A stretch of 32,000 bases of DNA from positions 330,001 through 362,000 of the forward strand of contig NZ_CP011042.1 of NCBI RefSeq assembly GCF_002310835.1. The letters are read 5' to 3'. The stretch comes from Pseudoalteromonas tetraodonis. GTDB taxonomy: Bacteria > Pseudomonadota > Gammaproteobacteria > Enterobacterales > Alteromonadaceae. The notes beneath the pieces are model-generated. The model had not been told where the DNA came from. It saw only the letters and a program-made list of their open reading frames with translations, and did no database searches. Position numbers and translations under genes: made by a program. Below, in pieces: positions 774-29,504 of this stretch (the stretch's first letter is position 1; each line of letters begins with the position of its first letter).

Positions 774-1562
774 CTATTTTTTAAATGGCATTATTAACAA
801 TTGCCACAAGGATGAATTTTGTTCGGGGTTTGGGTATTGGCTCAAACCAAGTGCAATACGTTTATCAGGCTGGCTTGCCTGTGATTTATAGCTGCCAAAA
901 AGTCTATCCCACCAAGTTACACTAAACCCAAAGTTACTGTTTGTTTCTTCGGGGTTTTGGCTGTGATGTATGCGGTGCAGCGCTTGGGTGATAAGGATGA
1001 GGCGCAGTGGTTTTTCTATTGCGCTTGGCAAGCGAATATTTGCGTGGTTAAACAGTGCTAACCCATTGAGTGTTATTTCAAATATAAGTACTGCAATGGC
1101 GGGCACGCCAAGAGCAGTTATGGCGGCAAGCTTTATCAATATGCTAAGACCTATTTCAATAGGGTGAAAGCGCAGCCCAGTGCTTGTATCTACGTGCGCA
1201 TCAGCATGGTGAACACGGTGTAAACGCCATAAAATTGGAATTTTATGAAATAATCTGTGTTGCCAATAAATCAGTATATCTAGCAACAGCAGGCTAAGTA
1301 TAATTGCTACTGAAAGAGGCATAGTTAGTTGATTAAACACACCGATACTATGTTCTTGGTTATAAAGCGCGGCGGCGGTTAACCCTAAAGGAACCGCTAA
1401 CCGAGCAATCACTGAAGAGGTAAATACAAGACCAAAATTCGCAACCCAACGTTTAGTGGCTTTTATGGGCGATTGCCGTGCAGGGGCTTGCCACTCAAGC
1501 AGCATCATTATGACTAAAATACTTACAAAACATCCAAGCCGCCACCATAATTCGTTATCCAT
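774..1562 (-). CDS. Fatty acid hydroxylase / sterol desaturase superfamily membrane protein
   Basis: 262-aa ORF with multiple hydrophobic segments and the di-iron histidine boxes of this superfamily (WQHRLFH, HRVHH, HRIHH). It overlaps the upstream gene by 8 nt. Confidence 0.85.
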   Translation of the reverse strand: MDNELWWRLGCFVSILVIMMLLEWQAPARQSPIKATKRWVANFGLVFTSSVIARLAVPLGLTAAALYNQEHSIGVFNQLTMPLSVAIILSLLLLDILIYWQHRLFHKIPILWRLHRVHHADAHVDTSTGLRFHPIEIGLSILIKLAAITALGVPAIAVLIFEITLNGLALFNHANIRLPSAIEKPLRLILITQALHRIHHSQNPEETNSNFGFSVTWWDRLFGSYKSQASQPDKRIALGLSQYPNPEQNSSLWQLLIMPFKK

Positions 1563-2205
1563 TGATAGCCTCCGTTTTACTGATATTAGCTTCTAGTTGT
1601 TTTAATGTGTGATAACCGCCATAAATACGGGTGAAAATCGTTATGGCGCAAGCTGCAGCAAATAAGCTGGCCATTATGGCAAAGTGCTGCGGCCAAATAC
1701 AAAAGGCAACAAATAAGGCAATGGTTTCTGTGCCTTCGGTTAAGCCATTTAAGTAGTAAAAACTTTTATATTTAAATTGTGGTTTGTCGAGTTTAAATTT
1801 TTCAGCGGCAATCGCAAAGGCCAAAAAGCTGGAACCGGTACCTATAAAAGTAGCCAGTAAAATAGCACCTGCAATGGCATTTTGTGCTGGATTAGCCAAA
1901 ATAAAGCCCAGTGGAATCGCTGCGTAAAATAAAAAGTCGAGAGTAATATCTAAAAACCCACCCGCGCTAGAACTTTGATTAGCATAGCGGGCTAATGCGC
2001 CATCCAGTCCATCTAAAATTCTATTCAACGCAATGGCGATTAATGCGCCATACCACATTTCAAAGGCAAGTAAAGGCACGGCAAACATACCCACTAAAAA
2101 ACCAAAAACAGTGAGTTGATTAGCTGTAATGCCGCTTTTATTAATGAGCATAACAACCGGTGTTAGTAGTGGCTTTATAATGGGGGTAACAAATTTATCT
2201 AACAT
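1555..2205 (-). CDS. CDP-alcohol phosphatidyltransferase family protein (YnjF-like)
   Basis: 216-aa polytopic membrane ORF with a D-G-x2-A-R type motif (LDGLDGALARY) followed by acidic residues (FLDITLD), as in CDP-alcohol phosphatidyltransferases. Confidence 0.8.
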   Translation of the reverse strand: MLDKFVTPIIKPLLTPVVMLINKSGITANQLTVFGFLVGMFAVPLLAFEMWYGALIAIALNRILDGLDGALARYANQSSSAGGFLDITLDFLFYAAIPLGFILANPAQNAIAGAILLATFIGTGSSFLAFAIAAEKFKLDKPQFKYKSFYYLNGLTEGTETIALFVAFCIWPQHFAIMASLFAAACAITIFTRIYGGYHTLKQLEANISKTEAING

Positions 2206-2233
2206 ACGTATTGCCTTGAATATGAGTCAGGTT

Positions 2234-2872
2234 TTAAGCATCAGTGCCTAAAGTAATCACTTTGCCAGCTGTTGCCTCGGCGTCACTGTGGTCGTGCGTA
2301 ACCATAATGGCAGGCAATTTATGCTCGCGTATTTGACTAAACACCAGTTCGCGGGTATCAACACGCAATTGGGTGTCGAGTTTACTAAAAGGCTCGTCGA
2401 GTAAAATAGCTTTAGGTTCGCTGAGCAACATGCGTAGCAGTGCAACACGCGCTTGCTGCCCACCAGATAGACTGTCGGGATGGCGGGCTGCCAATCCTGT
2501 TAAGCCAACTTGTTCTAGGGCGTGGTCTATTTTTTCAAGACGCTGCTTTTTATTGCCTTTGGGCATAGCAAAGGCAATATTTCCTGCCACTGTTAAATGC
2601 GAAAACAATAAAGCGTCTTGGTAGAGCACCCCAATATGGCGTAAATGCGGGGGTGTGTTATCTATATTTTGATCATTTAGCCATACTTCGCCTTGTGCCC
2701 TAAAGTCTTTGGGCAAACAGCCTGTAAGCCAATTTAATAAGCTTGACTTGCCACTGCCCGATGGCCCCATAATGGTGAGTATTTCGCCGCCATTTACTTG
2801 CTCGTTTAAGCTTAGTAACAGCTCGCCTTGACGGTAAAGCTGACAATCTTTGATGTGTAATGATGACTGCAT
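2234..2872 (-). CDS. ABC transporter ATP-binding protein (YnjD-like)
   Basis: Walker A GPSGSGKSS, signature LSGGQQARV, Walker B ILLDEP, H-loop VTHD. 212 aa. Confidence 0.9.
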   Translation of the reverse strand: MQSSLHIKDCQLYRQGELLLSLNEQVNGGEILTIMGPSGSGKSSLLNWLTGCLPKDFRAQGEVWLNDQNIDNTPPHLRHIGVLYQDALLFSHLTVAGNIAFAMPKGNKKQRLEKIDHALEQVGLTGLAARHPDSLSGGQQARVALLRMLLSEPKAILLDEPFSKLDTQLRVDTRELVFSQIREHKLPAIMVTHDHSDAEATAGKVITLGTDA

Positions 2873-2896
2873 TAAATAGCCTTAATGGTTTTATAG

Positions 2897-4612
2897 TTAA
2901 GCGCGCGCTTTAAAAAAGTATTTAGGTAACACCCATGCCACACCAAAACCAATTAGCGGTAATGCCATTTGTAAAATGGCGTAAACTGCACTGGTGCGTC
3001 TGCTTGCGCCATTAGCAAGGGTTACGGCTTCGGTGGTAATGGTACTTATACGCCCGCCACTGGCTAAAAGTGTAGATAAATATTGGCCAAAACTAATCGC
3101 CAGTCCAAGCGCTATCGCGATTAAAATAGGGGCGAATAGTTGTGGCAATTTAACCTGTAAAAACACCTTGCAGGGACTTGTCCCCAAGCTTGCGGCAACG
3201 CGCGCTAATCGAGGGTCTAAACGCCTGTAACTATCGGCAATAGATAAAAAAACATACGGTAAAACAAATAAAACGTGCACAAATATCACATTAAAAAAGG
3301 CATGCTGGCTATTGAGCAGTTGTTGTAACCACACAATACCAAATAAAAACGCAATACTGGGCACTAATAAAGGAAGATAAATAATTAACTGTGTCCATTT
3401 CGACATGGGTTTCGTGTTTAACTGCTCGGCTTCTAAGCACAGCAATACCATAGTGATAGCAAACAGCGTACTTATTACCCCTATTATTAAGGTATTAAAC
3501 AAGGGAGTATGTATTTGTGTAAATGCATGTTGAAAATGCAGAAATACCACGCTTGAGGGCACGGTATCCGGAAAACGCCAATAGCCCGCTATTGACCACA
3601 TCACTAACCCAATTAGCGCAGCAACAATAAAAATTAAAATTAGACTCGTGAAAACATGAGTAAATGTGCAGATCAATTGATGTGCATACTGGCGGCGGCC
3701 ATTAATAAGTGATTGCTTAAAAACTAGAGCAATGATTTTTTCAAGCAATAGCCACGTTAAGAGTAGTCCAACAGTGACCGCTAATTGTAACAGGGCACCC
3801 GCCGAGGCTTTTATTCGCAGGTTTAAATCTACATCGTTAAACCAGTGCATTATAGCAACGGCTAAAGTGGGAGGGGTATTTGGGCCAAGAATGAGTGGCA
3901 TTTCAACGCTGGCGCTGGCATAAGCAAGTACTGCAAAAATAGGTAAACGTAACAGTGGGTATAAACTGGGTAGCACCACTTTAAAAAACGCCACCATAGG
4001 GTAATAACCTAAATTAACCGCAATTTGATGCTGTTTGCGTAGCTTTTTGCCAAGTTCGGGTTGCGCCAAAACACTCAATGCAATCAGTAGTAAAAAAGGT
4101 AACTCTTTAAGCACAAGCCCAATAATAATGCTCCAGCCAAAAGCGTCGTAAGGTAACGCGCCTTCTGGCGCTAATTGCCAGCCAGTTAACCATGGAGAAA
4201 ATAAACGAGTAAATAACCCCGATGGCGCAATTAAAAAACTCACCGCAATCGCGGCAGCGGCATGCGGAATAGCCAATATTGGACTTAAAATATATTCAAT
4301 GCGTTTAAGCCACACACTATTAAAAAACGCGCCAAGCATAATGATCATCAGCACAAACGCGATTAAGGTACTAATAAGCCCTGTTCGTATGCTCAGCTCT
4401 ACCATGTGTGTCAATCCAGGCGTTTGCCATAATGCGTTAAATCCTGCTAAGCCAATATTTGTTTCATTGAGTGCCGGCGCCCAACCAAAGGCAGGTAAAA
4501 GCACGCCGATTACCCCCCCTAAAACGGGTAAAGTAAGCAATGCAACCAAACAGTAAGGACTTAGTTTGACCAAAAAGGTAAATAGGCTATTTGAAGCGGG
4601 TACTTTATTCAT
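2897..4612 (-). CDS. ABC transporter permease with two tandem permease domains (YnjC/ThiP-like)
   Basis: 571-aa, about 12-TM ORF with two EAA-like loops (AVNLGYYPMVAFFKVVLPSL and AASLGTSPCKVFLQVKLPQL). ATGA start/stop overlap with the upstream binding-protein gene. Confidence 0.85.
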   Translation of the reverse strand: MNKVPASNSLFTFLVKLSPYCLVALLTLPVLGGVIGVLLPAFGWAPALNETNIGLAGFNALWQTPGLTHMVELSIRTGLISTLIAFVLMIIMLGAFFNSVWLKRIEYILSPILAIPHAAAAIAVSFLIAPSGLFTRLFSPWLTGWQLAPEGALPYDAFGWSIIIGLVLKELPFLLLIALSVLAQPELGKKLRKQHQIAVNLGYYPMVAFFKVVLPSLYPLLRLPIFAVLAYASASVEMPLILGPNTPPTLAVAIMHWFNDVDLNLRIKASAGALLQLAVTVGLLLTWLLLEKIIALVFKQSLINGRRQYAHQLICTFTHVFTSLILIFIVAALIGLVMWSIAGYWRFPDTVPSSVVFLHFQHAFTQIHTPLFNTLIIGVISTLFAITMVLLCLEAEQLNTKPMSKWTQLIIYLPLLVPSIAFLFGIVWLQQLLNSQHAFFNVIFVHVLFVLPYVFLSIADSYRRLDPRLARVAASLGTSPCKVFLQVKLPQLFAPILIAIALGLAISFGQYLSTLLASGGRISTITTEAVTLANGASRRTSAVYAILQMALPLIGFGVAWVLPKYFFKARA

Positions 4613-5886
4613 TGGCTAACCCCATAGCGCGTTTGCCAACCTTGCATTATGGCATTAACCCAACTTGGGTGAGGCTCACTGAGTGTGCGTTTTATGCTAT
4701 TAAAAGGCAGCGCACTTGGGTGCGGTTGTGTGGTTTTAAATAAGGCTTGTTGCTGGGTATTTAGCATTGATTGGATCAACACGGTTTTATCGCCCCAAAT
4801 AGTGGGCTTTTGTTTATGAGCTTGCGCTTGAGGGCTTAATAAAAAATTAGCGACTAACTGTGCGCCTTGTGCATGGCTTGCATTATACGGTATTGCTACA
4901 AAATGGGTGTTACTTAAACTGCCATCATGCATAGCATAACTGCGGGTGCTGGTGGGTAAATCAAAGCGTTGTACTGCAGCGGGCACTTCTGGCGCTGAAA
5001 AGGTAAACCCGATACTAAGCTCAGTATCGTCAATTAAGCGGCGCATTTGTGCGCCACTTTGCATAAAATGTTTGCCGCTACGCCAAAGCGTAGGGTGTAA
5101 TTTATTTAAAAATACCCACAAAGGGTTGAGCACCTCAGTGGTGTTTTTATCTGTAGCTGGCTGGTTTAGCTGTGCTTTTAATTCATCATCGTTGTTGTTA
5201 TGTAGTACCACTAAAGCGTATTTTAAAAAGCTCATGCCTAAAAAATCAGGCGGCTTTGGGTAACTAAAACGCCCAGGGTTTTGCGCGCTCCAAGTTAATA
5301 ACTGATGTAGGGTGGTGGGTAATTGATTCGTTGTGCTGCCATCTATTGCTAGGCTGTCGTAATAAAAAGTGAGCGACGCTTGCCCCCAAGGCGCTTCCAT
5401 CCCGTTTGTAGGCAAACCAAAATCAAAGTTTACCGCGGGGTTATTATTAGGATCGGTTAATGCAAAATTTGGCAGCGTCTGGGCCCAGTCTTTAAGCAGC
5501 AAGTCATGCTTACTCATAGCGGCAAAGTTAGCGCCATTGATCCAAATTAAATCGACACTGCCTTGAGCGTGATTATTGGCTGATTTTTCTGCTAATACTC
5601 GGCTTACTGCTTCGCTGGTATCGCTTAATTTTACATGCACTAATTCAATATCATATTGCGCTTTGACCTGCTCAGCCACCCATTGAATGTAGGCATTTAT
5701 TTGCGGATCGCCGCCCCATGCATAAAAATAAACGGGTTGGTTTTTACCTTGGCTTTGGATAGTTTGCCAGCGAGTATCAGAGGGAGAGGTTGCCATGGTT
5801 TTAAAGCTAGCAACTAAAACAATGCACAAAGCAATACTCAAAAAACAATATCGGCTGAGTATTTGTATTGGCTTAACGACGTGCAT
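4609..5886 (-). CDS. ABC transporter periplasmic substrate-binding protein (YnjB-like)
   Basis: 425-aa ORF with an N-terminal signal/anchor, translationally coupled to the permease. The segment VYFYAWGGDPQINAYIQW resembles what I recall of YnjB-type binding proteins. Confidence 0.7.
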   Translation of the reverse strand: MHVVKPIQILSRYCFLSIALCIVLVASFKTMATSPSDTRWQTIQSQGKNQPVYFYAWGGDPQINAYIQWVAEQVKAQYDIELVHVKLSDTSEAVSRVLAEKSANNHAQGSVDLIWINGANFAAMSKHDLLLKDWAQTLPNFALTDPNNNPAVNFDFGLPTNGMEAPWGQASLTFYYDSLAIDGSTTNQLPTTLHQLLTWSAQNPGRFSYPKPPDFLGMSFLKYALVVLHNNNDDELKAQLNQPATDKNTTEVLNPLWVFLNKLHPTLWRSGKHFMQSGAQMRRLIDDTELSIGFTFSAPEVPAAVQRFDLPTSTRSYAMHDGSLSNTHFVAIPYNASHAQGAQLVANFLLSPQAQAHKQKPTIWGDKTVLIQSMLNTQQQALFKTTQPHPSALPFNSIKRTLSEPHPSWVNAIMQGWQTRYGVSQ

Positions 5887-6709
5887 TTAAATTCCAGTTG
5901 TAATCTAAAAATTTAATTTTCATGTCATTATTTTGCAGCGCTTTTTGTTGAGCGGGTAGCAGTTTTAATGCATCAGCGTATTGTGCTAAAAACGGGTGTA
6001 ATGTGTTTGCTCCTTTAAAGCCTTGTTCAAAATCACCGCCGTACCATTTAAAAATAGACGATACATTTAAAGTATTGCCTGTTGCCATGTTGCGGGTGTT
6101 GTCTGACAAAAAACGAACAGTTTGCTGGTGTAATTGCTCTTCTAGTTTATCGGCCGAGTAGGCTTCTTCACGAAGTGCAGGGCAACCAATACTGGCGCAG
6201 TTTACTGCAAAGTGAATACGCGGGTCGTTGTATTTACCACTACCACGAATTAACTCATGCTCTATATCATCAAGGCTGCGTGTTTTACCTAGCAGCGAAA
6301 TAAACTCTTTGCTCCACGGTGAACTAAAAAAGCTACCTAACTCTTTGATTGATTCAATATTAGGGTACTGCGTTAATATTAGTTCAACGGTAAAGGCATT
6401 ATAGGCATTAATTAAAAACGCCAACTGTTTGTGTTTACCCCACGTGTTAAATTCACCTGGTGTGATGGCTGTTAACGTATTTAAATATGCTTTTAATTGG
6501 GTATGCTCGTGTTTAATTGCAGCGTAATCAACCTCAGTGCTGTGCCCATGATTAATAGCGACAACATGTTTAGTTAATAGCGTGTTCCAACTATCGTGCA
6601 GGTTTTGTGCACTACTTTTAAACGCCGTGACCAGTAGTGCACTTAAAACTAAAAACTTCAATAACGTATACAAAGGCTTAACCTCGGCGCCATGCATGGT
6701 ATTTTTCAA
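5873..6709 (-). CDS. DUF547 domain protein, exported
   Basis: 278-aa ORF with a signal peptide (LKFLVLSALLVTAFKSSAQ) and DUF547-type motifs (FLINAYNAFTV, IHFAVNCASIGCP). The annotated start is TTG at 6709; an ATG at 6697 is an alternative. Either start overlaps the upstream stop at 6678-6680. Confidence 0.7.
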   Translation of the reverse strand: MKNTMHGAEVKPLYTLLKFLVLSALLVTAFKSSAQNLHDSWNTLLTKHVVAINHGHSTEVDYAAIKHEHTQLKAYLNTLTAITPGEFNTWGKHKQLAFLINAYNAFTVELILTQYPNIESIKELGSFFSSPWSKEFISLLGKTRSLDDIEHELIRGSGKYNDPRIHFAVNCASIGCPALREEAYSADKLEEQLHQQTVRFLSDNTRNMATGNTLNVSSIFKWYGGDFEQGFKGANTLHPFLAQYADALKLLPAQQKALQNNDMKIKFLDYNWNLNARR

Positions 6710-8831
6710 GCATGTTTAAAACAGTTTGTGGAGCATGGTTACGTTTCCATTCACCAGCGGCATATTTGTTGCCTTCTGCCCATGTTGGGTAGCTGTGAAT
6801 TGTGCCTAGAATTTTATTAAGGCCAAGGCCGTGTTTCATGGCTAAAACAAATTCAGCAATTAAATCGCCTGCATGCTCAGAAACCACAGTAACTCCGAGT
6901 ATTTTGTCTTTTCCTTTAGGGGTGATCACCTTAATAAAGCCATTATTGGCGCTCTCAGTAATGGCGCGGTCTAACTCTTCAAACTCAAAGCGGGTGATTT
7001 CATAGTCTATGCCTTTATCAATCGCTTCTTGCTCGTTTAGGCCTACGCGCGCGACTTCTGGATCAATGAAGGTGGTCCATGGAATAACACGGTAATCTAC
7101 TTTAAACTTTTTAAAGTGGCCAAATAAGCCATTAACCGCCGCGTACCACCCCTGATGAGCCGCAACGTGAGTAAACTGGTACGGGCCTACAATATCGCCT
7201 GCGGCAAAAATATTAGGGTAGAGTGTTTCTAAGTAGTCGTTAGTTACTATGGTTCGATTAGTTTCTATACCAAGCTCTTCAAGGCCATAGCCTTTGAGGT
7301 GTGCGCTTCGGCCAACGGCACACAGTAGCTCATCATATTCAATATCAATTTCGGTGTCGTTGTGCTTCACCACGAGGTACTTTTTACCCTCGCGTGCTTC
7401 ACAGCGCAGCGCTTGGTGTGAGGTTAAAATATTAACGCCACTATCGGCCAATGATTGGTGTGCAAAAGCTGACACTTCAACATCTTCTTTGATCATAACG
7501 CGCTGAGTCATTTCAACTTGCGTCACACTTGAGCCTAAACGAGCAAAGCTTTGTGCAAGCTCACAACCAATCGGGCCCCCACCTAAAACAACCAGTTTTT
7601 TGGGCGCTTCGTCGAGCTCGGCAAATTTGCTCCATAAAGTATCGCTGGTAACGTAACCGGTTTCTTCAATACCTGGCAGTGGCGGTATAAACGGGCGTGC
7701 ACCGGTGGCAATAACAAGTGTGCGAGCGGTAAGAGTTTGCGTGCTGCCATCGTTAAGTTTAATTTCCACTGTCCACGGGTCAATCAATTTTCCATAGCCT
7801 TTTAAAACCTCCACACCTAAATTTGTGTAGCGCTCTATGCTGTCGTGCGGGGCTATATCAGCAATGACTTGATGTACACGTGCCATTACTTTTTTAAAGG
7901 AAAACTGCGGTGTAGTGTTTTCAAGGCCATAGTTTTCGCCATGGCGCATTTGCTGTGCTATTTTTGCACTTTTAATAATCGCTTTACTAGGCACACAGCC
8001 AGTGTTTAAGCAGTCACCACCCATTTCGCCGGCTTCAATTAAGGTGACTTTGGCTTTTACTGCGGCGGCAATATAGCTGGTAACTAAGCCGCCTGCACCC
8101 GCGCCAATAACAATCATGTTACGGTCGAATTTTTTGGGCTTAGTGTAGTTTTTATAAACCCGTTGTTTTTTAAATACATTTAAAATCGCTTTCGCAATCA
8201 GTGGGAATACACCTAATAGAGCAAATGACAGAATTAAATCTAGTGACAAAATGCCCGATAAACGCTCAATTTGTGCAAGTTGAGTACCGGCATTCACAAA
8301 TACAAAGGTGCCTGCCAACATACCAATTTGGCTCACCCAATAAAAAGTCCACGACTTAATAGCGGTTAAGCCCATTAATAGGTTAATTAAAAAGAACGGA
8401 AATACCGGTACTAAACGCAAAGTAAAAAGGTAAAAAGCGCCTTCTTTATCTACGCCTTTATCTATAGCAGCTAAACGCTCAGGAAACCGTTTTTTAATGG
8501 TGTCGCGTAATAAATAGCGTGACACTAAAAAGGCAAGGGTAGCACCAATCGTTGAGGCAAACGACGCCACCAGTAAGCCTTCTACTAAGCCAAATAATGC
8601 GCCTGCGGCCAATGTTAAAATAGCTGCGCCGGGTAAAGAGAGAGCCGTTACTACCACATAGAGTAAAAAGAACCCGCCAATAACTAACAACGGCGATTGC
8701 GCTTTGTATTGGTTAAACTGATCCATCGACCCTTTTAAGCCATCGAGTGTAAGTAACTGGTGCAAATTAAAATGAAAGAACATGCCAATACCGGCTGCTG
8801 CAATCAATAATAACAATAGTTTTTTAATCAT
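6678..8831 (-). CDS. Fusion protein: N-terminal TVP38/TMEM64 (DedA-superfamily) membrane domain plus C-terminal class I pyridine nucleotide-disulfide oxidoreductase (mercuric reductase / dihydrolipoamide dehydrogenase-like)
   Basis: Residues 1 to about 225 are polytopic, with the TVP38-type segment LRLVPVFPFFLINLLMGLT. From about residue 238 onward: FAD GxGxxG (VIGAGAGG), redox-active disulfide GGDCLNTGCVPSK, NAD(P) site VVLGGGPIGCE, C-terminal HSYPTWAEG. Confidence 0.85.
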   Translation of the reverse strand: MIKKLLLLLIAAAGIGMFFHFNLHQLLTLDGLKGSMDQFNQYKAQSPLLVIGGFFLLYVVVTALSLPGAAILTLAAGALFGLVEGLLVASFASTIGATLAFLVSRYLLRDTIKKRFPERLAAIDKGVDKEGAFYLFTLRLVPVFPFFLINLLMGLTAIKSWTFYWVSQIGMLAGTFVFVNAGTQLAQIERLSGILSLDLILSFALLGVFPLIAKAILNVFKKQRVYKNYTKPKKFDRNMIVIGAGAGGLVTSYIAAAVKAKVTLIEAGEMGGDCLNTGCVPSKAIIKSAKIAQQMRHGENYGLENTTPQFSFKKVMARVHQVIADIAPHDSIERYTNLGVEVLKGYGKLIDPWTVEIKLNDGSTQTLTARTLVIATGARPFIPPLPGIEETGYVTSDTLWSKFAELDEAPKKLVVLGGGPIGCELAQSFARLGSSVTQVEMTQRVMIKEDVEVSAFAHQSLADSGVNILTSHQALRCEAREGKKYLVVKHNDTEIDIEYDELLCAVGRSAHLKGYGLEELGIETNRTIVTNDYLETLYPNIFAAGDIVGPYQFTHVAAHQGWYAAVNGLFGHFKKFKVDYRVIPWTTFIDPEVARVGLNEQEAIDKGIDYEITRFEFEELDRAITESANNGFIKVITPKGKDKILGVTVVSEHAGDLIAEFVLAMKHGLGLNKILGTIHSYPTWAEGNKYAAGEWKRNHAPQTVLNMLEKYHAWRRG

Positions 8832-8845
8832 ATTATCTCTTGGGC

Positions 8846-11200
8846 TTAAAAGTTATGCGTTAGGGTAAGCTTGGCGTTTATTGGTAATTCAGGGAATGCT
8901 AATGTTGCGCCAAAATAGCCGCCTTCAAACACTGGACGCCAGTTATCTTGATTTGTGACGTTGTTCACATCTAATCGCAACTTAGTGCTAGGCGTAAACG
9001 CGTAGCTGGTATTGACGTTTAACGTGTATTGGTCACGAATTTTCACTGTTTGTAAAAAATCTAGCGGGTAACTCTTTGTATATAAAGCTGAAAAACCTGC
9101 CTGCCATTTCTCATTAATTGAATAACTACCATTAACGCTTAACGATTGCTCAGGAATACCTTGTACTTGGCTATTTGAAGGGGCAAACGCTGTATAACTT
9201 GGCGCGCCTATACCATTACCGGCAATAATATCTGGGCGTGAGTTATCAAACGCATCAGCAATTTGCGCCGAGTCTTGGCCAGTCGCAGAGTTATCGTAGC
9301 GTGCGTCAATATAGCTATAACCTGCACTTAACCAATATGGGTAAGCGTCGTAAAATACTTGGCCTTCAAAACCTGAGGTACGAATACCGGTATTGCTGCC
9401 ATCGCGGTTGCGTAAACTACGGCGCTGGCTAAATAGGGCGCCATCAGCATACCAATCGCTGTTGGTAGGCGCATATTTTAAGCCAAATTCTACCAGCGTG
9501 TTTTCGGTTGCAAAGTTTTGCGCACTAATCGTGTTGTCACCACCTAAGGTGTTACCACCGGCCATACTATTTGAAGTCGCTTCGTTGTAACTTGCTGCGC
9601 CGTAACTTGTAAAATCAGTATTGAGCTTGTAATTAAAACTGATTTGGCCAGATTGCAGCGTGTCGTTAATGCTATCACTGGCTGCTGTTTGTCCTTGTGG
9701 CGCTATGGGATCGTGTGCTTCTACATCATAATAATCAAGGCGGTAACCCACACTGGTACGCAGTTTATTTGTCCACTGTGAGTCTTGTTGTATAGCAAAG
9801 CCAGTTTGCCAAGAACGCGAGTCGGTGGTGTCTGATAAGTTAAAATCACCACTGCCATCACCGTTTATATCGTATTGACCACCTGGAGATACAAATACAC
9901 CGGGGCGCAGCTCAACTAAGCGTGCTTTTTGCGCATCGGTTAATGGAATACGACGGTTTGAAAGTGGACCCGTTAAATCAATTGGCGTGTCGGCCTCGGT
10001 GGTAAATTGGCTGTATCCAAGTACTTTGTTGTAGCGCACATCAAAGGCTAAGATAGTCTGCTGTTCATTATTCCATTGATACGTTAGTTCAGTGCGGTTT
10101 TGTGCGGTATCGGCACCATCTATAATTTCAACAAAACTGTTTTGAGCCACTTCATCACGTTTTAAGTGCTGAAAATAACTAATATTTTTAAGCGACGCTT
10201 TATCTGAAAGCTCGCGCTTATAAATACTGTGTAGTAGGTAAGTAGTGGCTTCGTTTTGGTTATCAGGGTCGGTAAGTACGGTGCTGCGATCAATGTTAAC
10301 TAACCCTGTAGGAGATACAATTGAACCCGCTGCGGGTACTGTGCTGCCGTTTGCTTGAACGCCTTGGCCGGTAATGTAAAGACCATGGTCGATGAGTGCT
10401 TGAGTAGGGCGGTTAATACCGGCGTTGTCGGTAAACTCAACCTGATATAGCTCAAAGTTAATATCCCAGCTGCTTTTATCATCAGGCAATACTCGCAGTG
10501 CTGCAAAAAGACTGTCACTTTTAGTCCCTGAGTAATCGTAGTAGCTTCCATGATCAAGGTGTTCATAACTCACACGAAAACCAATTTTGTCTTTTACAAT
10601 CGGTGCGGTGTAATCAAGCTGAGCGGTGTATTGATCCCAACGACCCGCAGAGAGCTTCGCTTTACCTTTGTGTTCTTCAGTGGAGGCTTGCTTAGAGTGT
10701 AAATTTACAAAACCACCATTGCGCTGGCTTGAACCAAACAATACTGGAGGAGCGCCTTTAACTACATCTATTTGTTCTACCGCGTTAAATGATAACGGCA
10801 CACCAAAGCCGTTATTACCTGCTTGGCGACGAGTTCCATCTTGAAAAAGCTCACCTAATTGGCCACGAATAGTGGGTAAGCTTGGTGCACCAAAGCCACT
10901 GGCGGCATACGTATTAGGGCTCACAGCAAGTACATCTTGCAAGGTGGTAATGTTAAGTTGTTCTATTAGCTCTTTTGAAATAGGCGTGACTGAACGTGCT
11001 ATATCTTGCAGTGCTAAATTATCGCCAAAGGGGCCATTTATGGTTGCATCTTTAACAGAAAGTCCTTGAGAATTTAAACTTTGGCCCGCTACTTCAATAC
11101 GCTCTATGGCATTTTCTGTTACAGGCTTTGTTGTAGCAAAAGCAATAGCGGGTGTATTTAATAAAGCGGCTATAGATACGGCCAAGGATGAATATTTCAA
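8846..11200 (-). CDS. TonB-dependent outer membrane receptor
   Basis: 784 aa with a signal peptide (AALLNTPAIAFA), plug-domain-like N terminus (IERIEVAG...), a long Gly/Tyr/Asn-rich beta-barrel region and a C-terminal aromatic residue (LTHNF). TTG start at 11200. Confidence 0.9.
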   Translation of the reverse strand: MKYSSLAVSIAALLNTPAIAFATTKPVTENAIERIEVAGQSLNSQGLSVKDATINGPFGDNLALQDIARSVTPISKELIEQLNITTLQDVLAVSPNTYAASGFGAPSLPTIRGQLGELFQDGTRRQAGNNGFGVPLSFNAVEQIDVVKGAPPVLFGSSQRNGGFVNLHSKQASTEEHKGKAKLSAGRWDQYTAQLDYTAPIVKDKIGFRVSYEHLDHGSYYDYSGTKSDSLFAALRVLPDDKSSWDINFELYQVEFTDNAGINRPTQALIDHGLYITGQGVQANGSTVPAAGSIVSPTGLVNIDRSTVLTDPDNQNEATTYLLHSIYKRELSDKASLKNISYFQHLKRDEVAQNSFVEIIDGADTAQNRTELTYQWNNEQQTILAFDVRYNKVLGYSQFTTEADTPIDLTGPLSNRRIPLTDAQKARLVELRPGVFVSPGGQYDINGDGSGDFNLSDTTDSRSWQTGFAIQQDSQWTNKLRTSVGYRLDYYDVEAHDPIAPQGQTAASDSINDTLQSGQISFNYKLNTDFTSYGAASYNEATSNSMAGGNTLGGDNTISAQNFATENTLVEFGLKYAPTNSDWYADGALFSQRRSLRNRDGSNTGIRTSGFEGQVFYDAYPYWLSAGYSYIDARYDNSATGQDSAQIADAFDNSRPDIIAGNGIGAPSYTAFAPSNSQVQGIPEQSLSVNGSYSINEKWQAGFSALYTKSYPLDFLQTVKIRDQYTLNVNTSYAFTPSTKLRLDVNNVTNQDNWRPVFEGGYFGATLAFPELPINAKLTLTHNF

Positions 11201-11272
11201 ACGTTTTCTCTCTGTAATTGTATGTTGATGGTTATAAAAGACCGAAAGGCTTAAAAATAACTTTCAGCAATT

Positions 11273-11286: not shown

Positions 11287-11431
11287 TTTATTAAAATATT
11301 AAAAATAGCTGCTTTGTTAATCGATTTATTAAACAAGCTTAACAGCTATTTACAATTATTATGAAATAAAAGGGAGTTTGTACGGTCTTTATTGCTTATT
11401 AGTTTATTTATATCTTTTTTAAGGAAATTTT

Positions 11432-17550: not shown

Positions 17551-18774
17551 TTATTTTTTATTTTTTTCTGCTATCCATTGCGACATGTATTGTGTGCTGC
17601 GCATGGTGTGATGTTTTAGCATTTGACCGGTGAAATTTTTCATTCTATGCGCAGATAAATTTTGGCTTACTAATTGAATTTTTTCGATTAAATTGTCGCT
17701 CAACTGCGCTTTATCATAAAGTGTATTAAGTAACTCATTACCAGCTTTTTGTGCAGCTATAAACTCAGCCTGATTGGTATAAATTGAGACAGCAGCGTTT
17801 GCAAATTCTTCTGCATTTTGAGTGATAGCACCAGGCCATGGTAAATGGTTATGCATACCTTCGCTACCTATTGGCGTGGTGACGCTTGGGGTTTGCATGA
17901 TCATGGCCTCTAAAAGTTTGCCTTTTATGCCAGCACCAAAACGAAGCGGGGCTAAACAAACGCGCGCGCTTTGCATTACTTCATAAGCATCATCTGCCCA
18001 GCCTTTAATTAAAAAACCGGTTTTAGGGTTATTGAGTGCGGTGGCTTTAGGTGGTGGGTATGAGCCATAAATGTGCAACTCTGCCTGCGGTAGTTGTTTG
18101 CGGATGAGCGGCCAAATTTTTTGTAAATACAGTACTGCATCCCAGTTAGGGGCATGCCTAAAATTACCAATAGTCATAAAGTGTTGGCGCTGATCATACG
18201 ATTTAGTTTGCTCAGGTAAGGCGCTTAAATCAACCATAAATGGTAAATGATGTAACACACTAGGCTCAACTTTAAACACTTCATTGAGTAGTTCCATCTC
18301 ATAGCTTGAGATAATTAAGCTTAAGTCACAGCGTAAAATAGCGGCTATTTCACGTTTAGCTATGTCTGATAGTAAATCGCTATGGTTGAATTCACGCTCA
18401 CCTTTATGGGCTTCATGGCGGGCATTGCGCAGGCATTGTAAATCTTCGGTGTCTAAAATTTTAAGTGCATTTGGGCAATGCTTATCTACGCGCCAGCCAA
18501 ATTGTTCTTCCATCATAAAACGGTCGAACATAACAATATCTGGGTTGTAGGCTTTAACGTAATCATCAAAACTATCGCAGTTAAGTGCGATGCTTTGACT
18601 GGTGATGCCGTAATCGTTCAGATTTACCATGTGCTCTGTAGGTTGTGCAGGCGTAGCAAATTCAACATCCCAGTTTTGCGATTTAAACGCATTAAGTAAC
18701 GACATCATGTGCGTACCCGCAGCAGACGAATTGGGCTCTGGCCATACATAGCCAATTACCAGCACTTTTTTCAT
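17551..18774 (-). CDS. Glycosyltransferase (GT-B fold, GT4/GT1-like)
   Basis: 407 aa. The C-terminal half has the GT-B donor-binding pattern (APLRFGAGIKGKLLEAMIMQTPSVTTPIGSEG). Confidence 0.75.
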   Translation of the reverse strand: MKKVLVIGYVWPEPNSSAAGTHMMSLLNAFKSQNWDVEFATPAQPTEHMVNLNDYGITSQSIALNCDSFDDYVKAYNPDIVMFDRFMMEEQFGWRVDKHCPNALKILDTEDLQCLRNARHEAHKGEREFNHSDLLSDIAKREIAAILRCDLSLIISSYEMELLNEVFKVEPSVLHHLPFMVDLSALPEQTKSYDQRQHFMTIGNFRHAPNWDAVLYLQKIWPLIRKQLPQAELHIYGSYPPPKATALNNPKTGFLIKGWADDAYEVMQSARVCLAPLRFGAGIKGKLLEAMIMQTPSVTTPIGSEGMHNHLPWPGAITQNAEEFANAAVSIYTNQAEFIAAQKAGNELLNTLYDKAQLSDNLIEKIQLVSQNLSAHRMKNFTGQMLKHHTMRSTQYMSQWIAEKNKK

Positions 18775-18793: not shown

Positions 18794-19061
18794 TAGGGTC
18801 TGTTGACCTTTCAAGGTTAAATTTGCAGCAGTCTGTTTGGTATTTAGGCAAGGCAGAGCCTATGTGGTGTGGTTGTTCCCCACAAATAGGCGATAACGCA
18901 GCATCAATACCAAACAGGCGCTGCCCGAAGGGTTCTGCCTAGGGGCGATTTACTCTTTGTTGCTCGGTTTTTACTTAGCCCACTAGGTTACAAACTTCGC
19001 GCCGCGATTAAACCGCCCCTAGTTTGAACAAATTATAATCCGCAAAGGTCAATAGACCCTA
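18794..19061. mobile_element. MITE-like / highly structured 268-bp intergenic element with 18-bp terminal inverted repeats
   Basis: Left end TAGGGTCTGTTGACCTTT; reverse complement of right end TAGGGTCTATTGACCTTT (17/18). Two long internal imperfect hairpins: CTGTTTGGTATT/AATACCAAACAG and CTAGGGGCGATTTA/TAAACCGCCCCTAG. No credible ORF. Confidence 0.5.
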
Positions 19062-19282
19062 GTTTATTTGCGTGCTTTTTCAGCAGTGTAAATACGCTGC
19101 GTTTTGTTTAGTCGTAGTACATAACGACAACACAGTAACGATAAGTAAATAATCGCGTAGTTTAACTTATTCGCCTTACTTAAGCATCATTTAGCTGATT
19201 TTATCCTTGCTTAACACTTTATGAACAAGGTAAAACGTGTTTATATAGCGGGTAATATTTAACAATAAAAAAGGATGAAAAC

Positions 19283-21733
19283 ATGAATGCTTTTAGGCTA
19301 TTTATTGCCTTGGTAGGCTGCATTGTTTTATTGCCTGCAAGTTATGCAGAGCAAGGATATCAAACCCCTTCACCGGCGCTTGCGGCATTAGTCGATGCTA
19401 AGTTAGCACCAACTAGCTCTTTATCAAATGATGGTCAATGGCTTGCTCTGTTTGAACGCAAGCGTGTTGTGTCGCTTGATGAGCTGGCCAAAGAAGAATT
19501 TAAGCTTGCGGGAATTAAGCTTAATCCTGCTAACTTTTCACGCTCACGGGTAAGTGCAAAGTACAGCGCGTTAGAGCTTAAGCATGTTCAAAGTGGAACA
19601 GTAATAAACGTTAATAATTTGCCTCAGGGGATTATTCGCTCGCCGCGTTGGTCAGCAAATAGCGAACATTTAGCGTTTATTGTTGAACAACCGGATAACG
19701 CACGGCTATGGGTTTATAGCGTTAAAACCAAACAAGCTAAGCAGTTAAGTGAGCTTGCACTTAATTCAGTATTAACCGCTACGCCTTATCAGTGGTTACC
19801 CGATAGCACGGCGATTGTGGCTAATTTAGCGGTAAACTTAGACAAACCAAGATTAACCAATGATACCCAAAGCACAGTGCCGGTTATTCAACAAAGTACT
19901 GGCGAAAAAGCCCCAGCAAGGACTTATCAAAACTTATTGACCAGCCCGTTTGATGAAGCACAATTTAAATTTTATGGTCAAGGTCAATTAGCGTATATCA
20001 CGCTTGATGGCAAAGCACAGCCGATTGGCCGTGCCGGTTTATTTAAATCGTTTTCAATTTCGCCTGATTCAACCAATATTTTAGTCGCGACCATCGACGA
20101 GCCATTTTCGTATCAAGTCCCTTACAGTCGTTTTGCAACTACATGGCAAATATGGGGAATGCGTGGCTATGCATTAGTAGAGCTGGCAAAGCAACCTCTT
20201 GCCGACAACATTCCACAAGGCTACGACAGTGTGCGTACAGGTCGTCGTGATTTTGAGTGGCGAGCCGATCAAGGTGCTGAAGTCATATGGGCCGAGGCAC
20301 AAGATGGCGGTGATATGAAAACTGAGGTTGAATATCATGACTACCTTTACAGTTTACGAGCGCCATTTAAACGCGACCCTAAATTATTTGCCAAAGTAGA
20401 GCGTCGTTTTGCGGGTATACAATGGGGTAATGATAATATTGCCATGCTAAGTGATTGGCGTTTTAGTGACCGACAAGTGCGCACTTATGTAATTCAACCA
20501 CGTAATGCCGATAGTAACCGCGTGTTATTTTCAGAGCGCAGTTATAACGATGCCTATAAAGATCCAGGCAGTGCAATTTACGAGCGTAACGATTTAGGTG
20601 TTAGCGTAATAAAAGTTGTTGGCGGACGTTACATTTACTTACGTGGCGATGGCGCGTCTGAGCAAGGAAACATTCCTTTTTTAGATCAGTACGATGTTAA
20701 AACGAATAGCACCAAACGTTTATGGCAATCAGCAGCGCCTTATTACGAGCGTGTGCGTGCATTGTTAGACGATGAAGGCACAAAATTCATTACTATTCGT
20801 GAGTCTAAATCGCAGCAGCCAAACTTTTTTATTCGCGATTTAGATAAAGGCTCGCTAACACAGCTTACTCAGTTTGAGCATCCTTACCCTGCATTTAAAG
20901 GCGTAACCAAAGAGCAACTACGTTATACCCGTGATGACGGTGTTGAGCTTTCAGGTACGCTTTATTTACCACCAGGGTATGACAAAACACAAGGGCCATT
21001 ACCGGTATTGATGTGGGCATATCCACTTGAATATAAAGATAAAGCAGTTGCATCACAAGTGCGTGAATCTGAATACGAATTTACCTACATAGGTTATTGG
21101 GGCCCTATGCCTTACCTTGCGAAAGGGATTGCGGTGTTTGATGATCCTAAAATGCCGATTGTAGGCGTTGATGGCAGTGAGCCAAATGATCACTTTAGAA
21201 AACAGCTAGTCTCTAGTGCTAAAGCAGCGGTTGATGTACTGGTTGAAAAGGGCATTGCCGATAAAGATAACATTGCTATAGCAGGGCATTCGTATGGTGC
21301 GTTTATGGTGGCTAATTTATTAGCACATAGCGATTTATTTAAGGTAGGTATTGCCCGCAGTGGTGCGTATAACCGCACATTAACGCCGTTTGGTTTTCAG
21401 GGTGAAGAACGTGATTTTTGGCAAGCACAAAGTGTGTACGCAAACATGTCGCCGTTTTTCCATGCTGAAAAAATTAACGAACCTATGTTAATGATCCACG
21501 GTCAAGAGGACCCTAATTCGGGCACTTTTCCAATGCAAAGTGAGCGTATGTACGCAGCGCTTAAAGGCTTGGGTAAAGAAGCGCGTTTAGTGATGCTTCC
21601 TTACGAAGCTCATGGCTACCGTGCCCGTAAAAGCTTATTACATGTACTGTGGGAGCAAGAGCAATGGCTTGATAAGTACTTGTTAAAGGATAATGTTGAA
21701 CCAGTTGATATGGACGAACAACCCATTCAATAG
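19283..21733 (+). CDS. S9 family serine peptidase (prolyl oligopeptidase family), exported
   Basis: 816 aa with a signal peptide (LLPASYAEQ), a long propeller-like N-terminal region, nucleophile motif GHSYGAF, then HGQEDPNS and EAHGY. AGGA SD upstream. Confidence 0.9.
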   Translation: MNAFRLFIALVGCIVLLPASYAEQGYQTPSPALAALVDAKLAPTSSLSNDGQWLALFERKRVVSLDELAKEEFKLAGIKLNPANFSRSRVSAKYSALELKHVQSGTVINVNNLPQGIIRSPRWSANSEHLAFIVEQPDNARLWVYSVKTKQAKQLSELALNSVLTATPYQWLPDSTAIVANLAVNLDKPRLTNDTQSTVPVIQQSTGEKAPARTYQNLLTSPFDEAQFKFYGQGQLAYITLDGKAQPIGRAGLFKSFSISPDSTNILVATIDEPFSYQVPYSRFATTWQIWGMRGYALVELAKQPLADNIPQGYDSVRTGRRDFEWRADQGAEVIWAEAQDGGDMKTEVEYHDYLYSLRAPFKRDPKLFAKVERRFAGIQWGNDNIAMLSDWRFSDRQVRTYVIQPRNADSNRVLFSERSYNDAYKDPGSAIYERNDLGVSVIKVVGGRYIYLRGDGASEQGNIPFLDQYDVKTNSTKRLWQSAAPYYERVRALLDDEGTKFITIRESKSQQPNFFIRDLDKGSLTQLTQFEHPYPAFKGVTKEQLRYTRDDGVELSGTLYLPPGYDKTQGPLPVLMWAYPLEYKDKAVASQVRESEYEFTYIGYWGPMPYLAKGIAVFDDPKMPIVGVDGSEPNDHFRKQLVSSAKAAVDVLVEKGIADKDNIAIAGHSYGAFMVANLLAHSDLFKVGIARSGAYNRTLTPFGFQGEERDFWQAQSVYANMSPFFHAEKINEPMLMIHGQEDPNSGTFPMQSERMYAALKGLGKEARLVMLPYEAHGYRARKSLLHVLWEQEQWLDKYLLKDNVEPVDMDEQPIQ

Positions 21734-25805: not shown

Positions 25806-25814
25806 TTTTTATCC

Positions 25815-26606: not shown

Positions 26607-26667
26607 CCTTAAAATATAGTTTATCAGTGTTAAATATAACTGTTTAAAACATGGCTTAATATAATCG

Positions 26668-27504: not shown

Positions 27505-27521
27505 AGTTTTACCAACAGCAA

Positions 27522-27551
27522 TAAGGCCTAACACAAAATTGGTAGGCCTTA
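27522..27551 (-). promoter_or_regulatory. Intercistronic stem-loop between operon genes 1 and 2
   Basis: TAAGGCCTA / TAGGCCTTA, a perfect 9-bp stem with a 12-nt loop. The alternative GTG start (27534-27532) sits in the loop. Confidence 0.35.
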
Positions 27552-27558
27552 ACTTAAA

Positions 27559-28626: not shown

Positions 28627-28663
28627 ACAATTATTCCTTTATTAAGTTAGTGTTCATTTTCAC

Positions 28664-28692
28664 TTTTTAACACTTGTAACTAGATGGGTCAA
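28664..28692 (-). promoter_or_regulatory. Candidate sigma70 promoter of the envelope operon
   Basis: On the minus strand: TTGACC (28692-28687), a 17-nt spacer, then TAAAAA (28669-28664), about 40 nt upstream of the ATG at 28626. The -10 matches only 4/6. Confidence 0.3.
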
Positions 28693-29413: not shown

Positions 29414-29425
29414 AAATTCAATTGT

Positions 29426-29442: not shown

Positions 29443-29504
29443 AAATATAGTGACAAGTTAAGTACGCTCGTTTATTGTGTGATTCAGTCATGTATATCAA
29501 TTAA

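Follow-up and report, generated by a model that had tools for sequence, protein, structure and literature searches.

A YnjBCD–YnjF operon of Pseudoalteromonas tetraodonis as a candidate system for organoarsenical uptake and lipidation

The 32,000-nucleotide stretch of Pseudoalteromonas tetraodonis DNA analysed here (the window; contig NZ_CP011042.1, 330,001–362,000) carries an operon for a TonB-dependent outer-membrane receptor, a DedA::disulfide-reductase fusion, a secreted DUF547 protein, a YnjBCD-type ATP-binding cassette (ABC) importer, the CDP-alcohol phosphotransferase YnjF and a di-iron hydroxylase. Judging from gene neighbourhood, we put at about even the chance that this operon deals with some organoarsenical. 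A more specific role is advanced tentatively from the same neighbourhoods: import of an arsenoriboside, redox handling of its arsenic and synthesis by YnjF of an arsenosugar phospholipid. The locus is probably a horizontally mobile envelope operon under an extracytoplasmic function (ECF) sigma factor. Uptake genes and ynjF occur together in every complete locus counted, and several of the accessory genes around them are common with operons built on the arsenosugar enzymes ArsS and ArsM; this overlap favours an organoarsenical over some generic polar nutrient in short supply.

The importer–YnjF core

A genome scan anchored on YnjB gave 80 loci, and presence was counted by tblastn in the 65 with full flanks. 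YnjB, YnjC, YnjD and YnjF were each found in 65/65, which makes uptake and YnjF an invariant pair; the DedA::reductase fusion occurs in 62/65, a DoxX-like membrane protein (encoded divergently in the window) in 53/65, the hydroxylase in 42/65, DUF547 in 20/65 and the TonB receptor in 19/65. The eight genes of the window operon, which the first-pass annotation had taken as one set, are not conserved as a unit: the receptor and DUF547 are confined to Alteromonadales-type loci (Psychrobacter loci have neither), and the hydroxylase is missing from half of the Psychrobacter loci and from Escherichia coli. Complete eight-gene sets were found in Pseudoalteromonas, Thalassotalea, Colwellia, Pseudocolwellia, Aliiglaciecola, Psychrosphaera and Catenovulum. 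The linkage of YnjBCD with YnjF, which that annotation had expected across distant gammaproteobacteria, does extend from E. coli to Alpha- and Gammaproteobacteria. Gene order differs between the classes (fusion–YnjF–YnjBCD in Alphaproteobacteria, fusion–(DUF547)–YnjBCD–YnjF in Gammaproteobacteria), and YnjBCD and YnjF stay adjacent despite this.

The binding protein matches the YnjB family almost end to end (NF008633, PRK11622; 508.7 bits, cut-off 203, profile positions 5–397 of 397) and is ~41% identical to E. coli YnjB. YnjC aligns with its E. coli namesake over residues 45–570 (29% identity, E 3e-38), the ATPase scores 108.5 bits against ABC_tran and matches the E. coli ynjD region at 49% identity in tblastn, and YnjF is 57% identical to E. 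coli YnjF over 207/216 residues (E 8e-76). On these alignments, the four proteins are orthologous to those of E. coli. No ligand class is deducible from homology, the YnjB profile matching PotD (22.6% probability) and ThiB (7.6%) only marginally. A sequence search of the PDB with YnjB found no relative, and its AlphaFold model is poor (predicted local distance difference test, pLDDT, 40.8). The 123 invariant positions of YnjB comprise 24 aromatic, 10 acidic and 4 basic residues and no cysteine.

Salvage of thiamine, of its oxidised form thiamine disulfide or of pieces of thiamine, the function implied by the KEGG-style label 'putative thiamine transport system', is highly improbable. ThiQ is the top NCBIfam match of the ATPase (163.6 bits) and ThiP a weak match of the permease (37 bits), a tenA-thiD-thiE-thiM cluster adjoins the locus in Falsirhodobacter, and thiamine is a cationic sulfur-containing alcohol. 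All Thi scores nevertheless lie under their cut-offs (245 for ThiQ, 395 for ThiP), the YnjB profile is closer to PotD than to ThiB, a thiamine route gives neither YnjF nor the hydroxylase a role, and E. coli already has thiBPQ. An Rfam scan of the whole window returned no family at gathering score, the thiamine pyrophosphate (TPP) riboswitch included. On the missing riboswitch and the ThiQ and ThiP scores, identity as a thiamine transporter was rejected.

YnjF scores 49.4 bits against PF01066 (cut-off 22), with its catalytic motif D-x2-D-G-x2-A-R-x8-G-x3-D-x3-D intact (DGLDGALAR-YANQSSSA-G-GFL-D-ITL-D). It falls below the characterised equivalogs (68 bits against 180 for archaetidylinositol-phosphate synthase, 43 against 170 for PIP synthase), and reaches ~21 bits against the Pcs models, whose cut-offs are 300–440. 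The family is small, with 134 clusters at 50% identity (E ≤ 1e-30), and the best 150 hits are all of 265 residues or fewer, so that no fusion partner is evident. Its closest solved relatives, the DIPP-synthase domain (4mnd) and AF2299, include enzymes acting on soluble CDP-alcohols.

The first-pass annotation had read the operon as taking up a scarce polar compound that then becomes, or modifies, a membrane-lipid head group. Import coupled to head-group installation is still the best frame for YnjF; the generic nutrient is not kept, an organoarsenical being indicated instead. In its original, non-arsenic form, with an amino alcohol, polyol or quaternary amine turned into a phospholipid head group by YnjF, we find the proposal quite unlikely. 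It draws support from the constant company of YnjF and the importer, from YnjB pocket residues that look suited to a cation and from weak Pcs-like hits, and also from the only experimental data on the YnjBCD/YnjF family, which are indirect: in E. coli, ynjC P213S confers a strong fitness gain under colistin and ynjC deletion reduces cationic-dye uptake (both PMC9184624). The colistin phenotype we count in favour of an envelope link. The proposal leaves unexplained, however, the near-universal reductase, DedA and thiol-redox partners, the control by ECF sigma factors with zinc-binding (ZAS-type) anti-sigma factors, and the orthologous accessory genes common with ArsS operons.

Accessory genes in common with arsenosugar operons

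A plasmid collection was searched with the fusion protein and then with ArsS, ArsS homologues were looked up and ten ArsS contexts were examined. Accessory genes of the window type recur in ArsS/ArsM arsenosugar operons of six or more lineages; within 10 kb, DedA and reductase are found in seven of the ten contexts, DUF547 in four and the hydroxylase in three. An Acinetobacter portensis plasmid has the order arsS–DedA::PNDR–DUF547–TIGR04283–TIGR04282–ArsM-like methyltransferase–PiT (PNDR, pyridine nucleotide-disulfide oxidoreductase), with a methylthioadenosine (MTA) phosphorylase (MTAP) and an FA_hydroxylase nearby, and a metagenomic contig (L113) reads ECF sigma–ArsS–fusion–DUF547–GT2–DUF2064–methyltransferase–LMWPc, the last an ArsC-like phosphatase. 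DedA and reductase are unfused in Microbulbifer marinus (MTAP–ArsS–VTT–PNDR–GT2–DUF2064). The cyanobacterium Pseudanabaena has TVP38–'mercuric reductase'–arsM–TVP38–arsS with an ArsR gene ~4 kb upstream, and Thiodictyon a nucleoside-recognition transporter–GT2–FA_hydroxylase–arsS array. In Burkholderia thailandensis, DUF547 lies 3.5 kb downstream of arsS, with ECF/ZAS, CcdA and thioredoxin genes nearby; Burkholderia glumae has a bufferin operon, the fusion and a ZAS gene, then a TIGR03169 reductase and both transferases; and in Cupriavidus arsS is 34 nucleotides (nt) from the fusion gene.

The fusion joins an N-terminal COG0398/TVP38 DedA domain (about residues 1–230, without cysteine; VTT_dom PF09335, 88.8 bits, cut-off 33.9) to a C-terminal class-I NAD(P)H:disulfide oxidoreductase (Pyr_redox_2, 205 bits; Pyr_redox_dim, 104.6 bits). 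The DedA domain is 30% identical to E. coli YdjZ (E 2e-12) and is of the TVP38 branch, not the YghB type. Catalytic motifs were read directly in the translations, and those of the reductase are intact (GAGAGG for FAD, GGGPIG for NAD(P)H, the CLNTGC redox pair and the His–Glu dyad in HSYPTWAE). A lysine-rich linker after DedA would, by the positive-inside rule, place the reductase in the cytoplasm. Our literature search on DedA/oxidoreductase fusions returned only a DedA-subfamily survey, which finds PF07992 with PF02852 to be the commonest fusion of the COG0398 branch and assigns no function to it (bioRxiv 10.1101/2023.01.04.522824). DUF547 (97.7 bits by Pfam) has an invariant motif, HFAVNCASIGCPAL, across 17 homologues, and an invariant CASIGC cysteine pair of the secreted Cx4C kind; a PDB sequence search found no match, nor did Foldseek against the PDB with its AlphaFold model (pLDDT 78.5; E ≤ 0.001), and no fold was assigned. 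The hydroxylase (PF04116, 103.9 bits) has the His boxes HRLFH, HRVHH and HRIHH; it belongs to the FA_hydroxylase superfamily and falls outside OlsE (NF052566, 88 bits against 475), and a PDB sequence search with it found no match.

These proteins are close to their arsenosugar-operon counterparts. The fusion is 61–67% identical to those of ArsS operons and has a distinctive C-terminal tail in common with them; DUF547 is 50% identical to that of the Acinetobacter ArsS operon, with CASIGC motif and signal peptide alike; and the hydroxylase is 52% identical to the Acinetobacter arsenosugar-locus enzyme and 34% to the one beside Thiodictyon arsS. By these sequence comparisons, the accessory proteins are common with ArsS operons at the level of orthologues and not of family alone. 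Both modules meet in one Pseudomonas metagenome-assembled genome (L036), where ArsS (445.8 bits), TIGR04283 and TIGR04282 lie directly ahead of the whole cassette (DsbA-like, glutathione S-transferase (GST), TetR, DoxX-like, fusion, DUF547, YnjBCD, YnjF, hydroxylase), so the arsenosugar and YnjBCD–YnjF modules can work side by side. On a Sphingopyxis plasmid, a NupC/CNT nucleoside-type transporter replaces YnjBCD between the TonB receptor and YnjF, with an AhpD-like gene nearby, and the Thiodictyon 'nucleoside recognition' transporter is two genes upstream of arsS (GT2 and hydroxylase between them); nucleoside-type transporters in these positions fit with a riboside substrate. The name of an NCBIfam ArsM::AhpD fusion model ties the AhpD-like partner to arsenic too. 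Elsewhere, a Zhongshania-like contig (L112, 1245–2399) encodes a CDP-alcohol phosphotransferase and, next in order, a small cytidylyltransferase, the pair lying ~8 kb from arsS and an ArsM-like methyltransferase gene.

An arsenosugar phospholipid is a diacylglycerol phosphodiester of glycerol arsenoriboside, with the type of bond that a CDP-alcohol phosphatidyltransferase forms. We know of no gene for the phosphatidyl-transfer step, for which, in ocean arsenolipids, the window operon is now a candidate. ArsS makes 5'-deoxy-5'-dimethylarsinoyl-adenosine, the arsenoriboside precursor, from trivalent dimethylarsenic, DMAs(III) (PMC13598754), and arsenosugar phospholipids dominate the arsenolipids of the surface ocean, their ether-linked fraction being suspected to be bacterial (bioRxiv 10.1101/2021.03.22.436501). 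The hosts of the operon are algae-associated marine heterotrophs, and in the window it adjoins a GH16 (laminarinase-like)/TonB-receptor locus. A literature search found no paper joining arsenosugars or arsenolipids with DedA/TVP38, DUF547 or CDP-alcohol transferases, nor any functional account of ynjF, ynjB or DUF547.

From these neighbourhoods we infer a substrate, a direction and target for the redox step, and a lipid product. The substrate would most likely be an arsenoriboside, an arsenosugar-type alcohol of the kind released by algae, which would cross the outer membrane through the TonB receptor, be bound by YnjB in the periplasm and be imported by YnjCD. At the inner-membrane face, the fusion would set the As(V)/As(III)–thiol redox state of the arsenical, with the secreted Cx4C DUF547 protein and the DoxX-like membrane protein as helpers. 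YnjF would then move phosphatidyl from CDP-diacylglycerol to a hydroxyl of the imported compound, yielding a lipid of the arsenosugar-phospholipid type that the di-iron hydroxylase could modify further and the DedA domain may redistribute across the bilayer. The window operon looks like a salvage and lipidation branch, not one of de novo arsenosugar synthesis. That YnjF is itself the missing arsenosugar-phospholipid synthase, with the COG0398 DedA::reductase and DUF547 serving the reduction and handling, at the membrane, of pentavalent methylated or riboside arsenicals, is a bolder and unlikely proposition.

Several points weigh against this scheme. The case is made wholly by association, gene neighbourhood alone linking YnjBCD and YnjF with arsenic. 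ArsS, ArsM, both transferases and MTA phosphorylase gave no tblastn match in the window; arsS lies within 10 kb in 1 of the 80 YnjB-anchored loci (the Pseudomonas locus above); and the 120 closest ArsS homologues include none from Pseudoalteromonas or Psychrobacter, so the organism of the window would depend on preformed arsenicals. ArsS operons are without YnjF, which sets the lipid step outside the established module, and since the nearest solved relatives of YnjF include users of soluble CDP-alcohols, a lipid product is likely, not given. The conserved aromatic and acidic residues of YnjB suggest a cationic ligand over a neutral sugar, and its site would appear to suit arsenocholine-type or other onium alcohols better. 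In E. coli, the core is under FNR control in a gut bacterium, which would meet arsenosugars only now and then, if at all. The names of TIGR04282 and TIGR04283 ('arsenosugar biosynthesis glycosyltransferase') are predictions, and some related loci adjoin zinc, cobalt or thiamine genes instead.

Arsenic could also enter in another way, through a system that imports and neutralises a toxic methylated or trivalent arsenical, or another soft metal(loid), by the logic of the mer operon; YnjF would then make a soluble phosphodiester such as a glycerophospho-arsenosugar, not a membrane lipid. We regard this as improbable. The reductase is nearest to MerA and lipoamide dehydrogenase, but it lies under every NCBIfam equivalog cut-off (these two, glutathione reductase and RclA included), and identity as mercuric reductase was rejected: TIGR02053 gives 378.6 bits against 454.45, the N-terminus is DedA with no NmerA domain, and the C-terminus (...EKYHAWRRG) has no Cys pair. 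Users of soluble CDP-alcohols, DIPP synthase and AF2299, are the nearest solved relatives of YnjF, although its hydrophobic, PgsA-sized make-up and the adjacent lipid-type hydroxylase point to a lipid substrate. A conjugative IncC island that places the genes beside a bufferin-type copper-stress operon with ECF sigma, CMD and HAD genes (PMC11626156), a combination also seen in Burkholderia glumae, would suit neutralisation; a TonB receptor, being a scavenging device, is hard to square with it.

Control, redox neighbours and mobility

The genes and promoter-like elements of the window locus are listed in Table 1. The eight consecutive minus-strand open reading frames (ORFs) are confirmed from their coordinates, and the junctions, computed anew from the receptor end, are a 14-nt gap, a 32-nt overlap (20 nt from the ATG at 6697, the DUF547 start used by gene callers), a 14-nt overlap, a 4-nt ATGA overlap, gaps of 24 and 28 nt and an 8-nt overlap. 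All seven equal the values of the first-pass annotation; their spacing supports the single tightly packed transcription unit it proposed, and Pfam and NCBIfam scans bear out its domain assignments throughout. Independent gene calling on six contigs with an identical fusion protein recovers all eight genes, their order unchanged. Signal peptides are present on the receptor, the binding protein and DUF547. The receptor (Plug, 47.3 bits; TonB beta-barrel, 46.2 bits; both Pfam) scores below the siderophore-receptor subfamily TIGR01783 (109.1 bits, cut-off 223.5), and no STN signalling domain was detected in it.

Table 1. Genes and promoter-like elements of the window locus (positions are those of the window)
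Feature	Position	Strand	Remarks
TonB-dependent outer-membrane receptor, 784 aa	8846-11200	-	TTG start; signal peptide ...AIAFA/TT (cleavage at /)
DedA::disulfide-reductase fusion	6678-8831	-	VTT/DedA + Pyr_redox_2 + Pyr_redox_dim
Secreted DUF547 protein	5873-6709	-	probable ATG start at 6697, giving 274 aa
YnjB-type periplasmic solute-binding protein	4609-5886	-	NF008633
YnjC-type double-domain ABC permease, 571 aa	2897-4612	-	BPD_transp_1
YnjD-type short ABC ATPase, 212 aa	2234-2872	-	ABC_tran
YnjF orthologue, CDP-alcohol phosphotransferase	1555-2205	-	CDP-OH_P_transf PF01066
Membrane di-iron hydroxylase/desaturase, FA_hydroxylase ('sterol desaturase') family	774-1562	-	PF04116
Ninth member, DoxX/MauE-clan membrane protein, 137 aa	11432-11845	+	divergent from the eight-gene operon
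ECF-sigma-like motif TGAAAG-N17-GGTCT	11239-11266	-	~40-65 nt 5' of the receptor start codon
Second motif copy TGAAAT-N16-GGTCT	11362-11388	+	faces the DoxX-like gene

The DoxX-like ORF (DoxX, 26.7 bits, cut-off 23.6) belongs to the system as a ninth gene. It is divergent in Alteromonadales (80–90% identity), co-directional and just upstream of the fusion in Psychrobacter (~52% identity), and downstream of the cluster in Oceanisphaera and one further locus (L072). Alignment of the divergent intergenic regions from eleven loci revealed two conserved elements, TGAAA[G/T]-N16-18-GGTCT, each facing one gene at ~40–70 nt from its start. In the window the pattern has 3 hits against 0.14 expected, and the divergent pair occurs in 22/22 Alteromonadales-type loci and in one more (L089), with the strict pattern for both members in 19/22; it was not found in Psychrobacter, Psychromonas, IncC or alphaproteobacterial loci. 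A −35-like GAAA, a 16–18-nt spacer, a −10-like GTCT and a fixed, strand-specific position suggest an ECF-sigma promoter, and the motif pair would serve the operon and the DoxX-like gene. A search of the window for a cognate ECF sigma gene found none, and a scan for consensus promoters and terminators gave counts not above those in shuffled sequence. The third copy of the motif (TGAAA-N19-GGTCT, 19054–19082, minus strand) lies ~280 nt upstream of a glycosyltransferase gene (17551–18774, minus strand), in a divergent region common with an S9 peptidase gene (19283–21733), and may mark a regulon member or be a chance match.

Among relatives, an ECF sigma gene adjoins the cluster in Sphingopyxis, Ciceribacter, Pseudooceanicola, Burkholderia, Acinetobacter and an IncC plasmid, and a short zf-HC2 (ZAS-type) anti-sigma factor often accompanies it; other relatives have TetR instead. 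When the ORFs of all 80 loci were clustered and scanned against Pfam, the recurring neighbours were a TetR regulator, DsbA-like (CPWC) and CMD/AhpD-like (CHYC) proteins, the latter of the same family as E. coli YnjA, and a GST. Immediately ahead of ynjB, where ynjA stands in E. coli, two Psychrobacter loci without the fusion have AhpD-like and DsbA-like genes, and plasmid-borne relatives add thioredoxin, redoxin, CcdA, peroxiredoxin-like proteins and TIGR03169 as a second reductase. This redox theme, which dominates the related loci with its disulfide reductases, AhpD-like, DsbA-like, GST and thioredoxin proteins, had no place in the first-pass annotation, and neither did DoxX or the ECF sigma factor with its ZAS-type anti-sigma factor.

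The same neighbours could speak for thiol/disulfide or chalcogen homeostasis without arsenic. The cargo of YnjBCD would then be sulfur or selenium in oxidised form, for instance a disulfide, persulfide or selenotrisulfide, to be reduced as it enters by the membrane-tethered reductase, and lipid remodelling by YnjF and the hydroxylase would belong to the same stress response. Related loci are all ringed by redox proteins (AhpD-like/CMD, DsbA-like with CPWC, Nu-class-like GST, redoxin, thioredoxin, CcdA and YnjE), with ECF sigma/ZAS pairs or TetR as regulators, and in plants DUF547 is fused to glutaredoxin (PMC13621322). Even so, we think such a role unlikely: it leaves YnjF, which is conserved best of all these proteins, without a task, does not account for the orthologous fusion, DUF547 and hydroxylase inside ArsS/ArsM operons with MTA phosphorylase and ArsC-like phosphatase, and sits badly with the acidic and aromatic invariant residues of YnjB, which poorly suit an anionic sulfur or selenium oxyanion. 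The selenium variant starts from the TIGR03169 'N-terminal to SelD' reductase, whose family is found fused to SelD, from selD near ynjF in enterobacteria and from a DedA protein linked to selenite uptake in Cupriavidus, in work cited by PMC8679861; since the TIGR03169 reductase sits in arsenosugar clusters too, we keep it only as part of this thiol alternative.

Identities between Pseudoalteromonas and Psychrobacter proteins (reductase 89%, DedA 86%, YnjF 82%) are unusually high for members of different orders. In Psychromonas sp. SP041, a seven-gene cassette from fusion to hydroxylase, without the receptor, is lodged between nrdA and nrdB (L088, 7848–15963), and several Pseudoalteromonas carry the cassette on chromids or on a 65-kb plasmid. 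The simplest reading is that it moves horizontally between genera as a unit. On conjugative clinical and veterinary plasmids, a transposon-flanked island (IS66, Tn3), exemplified by the E. coli IncC plasmid pYDC637 (L091) and found also on Klebsiella, Salmonella, Providencia and Citrobacter plasmids, combines a bufferin-type operon (DUF2282-DUF692-DUF2063-DoxX), the DedA::reductase, TIGR03169 reductase, YnjBCD and YnjF genes, and an ECF sigma gene with CMD, HAD and TetR genes. YnjF–YnjBCD lie beside zur and znuA on plasmids of Rhodobacteraceae SC52 (L100, 8413–13163), where they occupy the expected znuCB position, and Pseudooceanicola (L092, 3624–10004). A zinc or cobalt role, raised by adjoining Zur/ZnuA and CbiMNQO genes in Rhodobacterales, was judged to be neighbourhood noise on transporter-rich plasmids.

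Flanking the operon in the window, two identical 14-bp palindromes, TGTAAGCGCTTACA, at 565–578 and 596–609, 31 bp apart, lie in the gap that separates the hydroxylase gene from the GH16 and TonB-receptor genes downstream and look like LacI-type operators of the polysaccharide locus. Farther off, a Mutator-family (IS256-like) transposase gene (22715–23917, plus strand) is followed by a low-GC stretch (0.31–0.38, ~24000–30000) that codes for an LPP20-like lipoprotein and an SLT transglycosylase, has further ORFs matching no family, and may be an inserted island.

Were arsenosugar lipidation to prove true, the operon would define genetically, for the first time in bacteria, how an exogenous organoarsenical becomes a membrane lipid, and would assign function to E. 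coli ydjX, ydjZ and ynjA-F, to DUF547 and to one DedA branch. YnjBCD, YnjF, TVP38-type DedA and DUF547, all conserved and uncharacterised families, gain in organoarsenicals a concrete chemical context. In Klebsiella, Salmonella, E. coli and Providencia the cassette travels with metal-stress genes on conjugative plasmids, IncC among them, and a role in envelope composition could carry clinical relevance, given this plasmid carriage and the altered colistin fitness of the ynjC mutant. If arsenic is wrong, the conserved association of importer, CDP-alcohol transferase and membrane-tethered disulfide reductase would still be an undescribed design.

Comparison with known systems

The first-pass annotation had pointed to an E. 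coli linkage of ynjBCD with ynjF, which is real and fuller than it noted, two TVP38/DedA genes and an AhpD-like gene having been overlooked. The MG1655 order is ydjX (DedA), ydjY, ydjZ (DedA), ynjA (AhpD-like), ynjB, ynjC, ynjD and ynjE (rhodanese), then the convergent ynjF, and ydjXYZ-ynjABCD form one FNR-activated operon (PMC3688515). As far as homology tells, the design common to both organisms is a TVP38-type (COG0398) DedA protein and a CxxC redox protein encoded with the YnjBCD importer and YnjF. E. coli differs in having two free DedA genes, the ferredoxin-like YdjY and the AhpD-like YnjA in place of the fusion, in the rhodanese YnjE, in a ynjF that is not co-transcribed, and in lacking the TonB receptor, DUF547, the hydroxylase and the DoxX-like gene; it is regulated anaerobically through FNR, whereas the window operon has a probable ECF-type promoter. 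Also in MG1655, thiBPQ (L102, 1230–4001) is convergent with the DedA-family gene yabI (352–1116), a second DedA gene beside an ABC importer of the same permease architecture and possibly a coincidence.

The ArsM/ArsS clusters (ArsS, TIGR04167) have in common with the window DedA with a class-I disulfide reductase (fused or split), Cx4C DUF547 and FA_hydroxylase, and with its relatives the TIGR03169 reductase, CMD/AhpD-like and HAD proteins and ECF/ZAS regulators. The window differs from them by lacking ArsS, ArsM, the transferases and MTA phosphorylase, and by possessing the receptor, the ABC importer and YnjF. Bufferin operons (DUF2282-MNIO-DUF2063-DoxX) resemble it in their DoxX-family membrane protein and ECF-sigma control, and in B. 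glumae and on IncC plasmids of Enterobacteriaceae one lies immediately ahead of the DedA::reductase gene (PMC11626156), but of these components the window has the DoxX-like gene only, with no precursor peptide, MNIO or DUF2063 gene.

Choline uptake followed by Pcs likewise pairs a binding-protein-dependent importer with a CDP-alcohol phosphatidyltransferase that uses the alcohol brought in from outside. By the scores given above YnjF is no Pcs, the choline system has no counterpart of the redox module, TonB receptor or hydroxylase, and choline importer and phosphatidylcholine synthase genes are not known to form one operon. The mer operon has a periplasmic binder, inner-membrane import and a MerA-like flavoprotein reductase tethered to the transport step, the tether being NmerA in MerA and the fused DedA membrane domain in the window protein; the window lacks NmerA, the C-terminal Cys pair, MerT and MerP, imports through an ABC system and adds a lipid-type transferase. 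The choline/Pcs system therefore shares the logic with a transferase of another subfamily, and mer shares the logic of import and reduction without the MerA hallmarks being present in the window. Closest, in terms of sequence relationships, are the E. coli region, which shares the core, and the ArsM/ArsS clusters, which share accessory genes and not the core.

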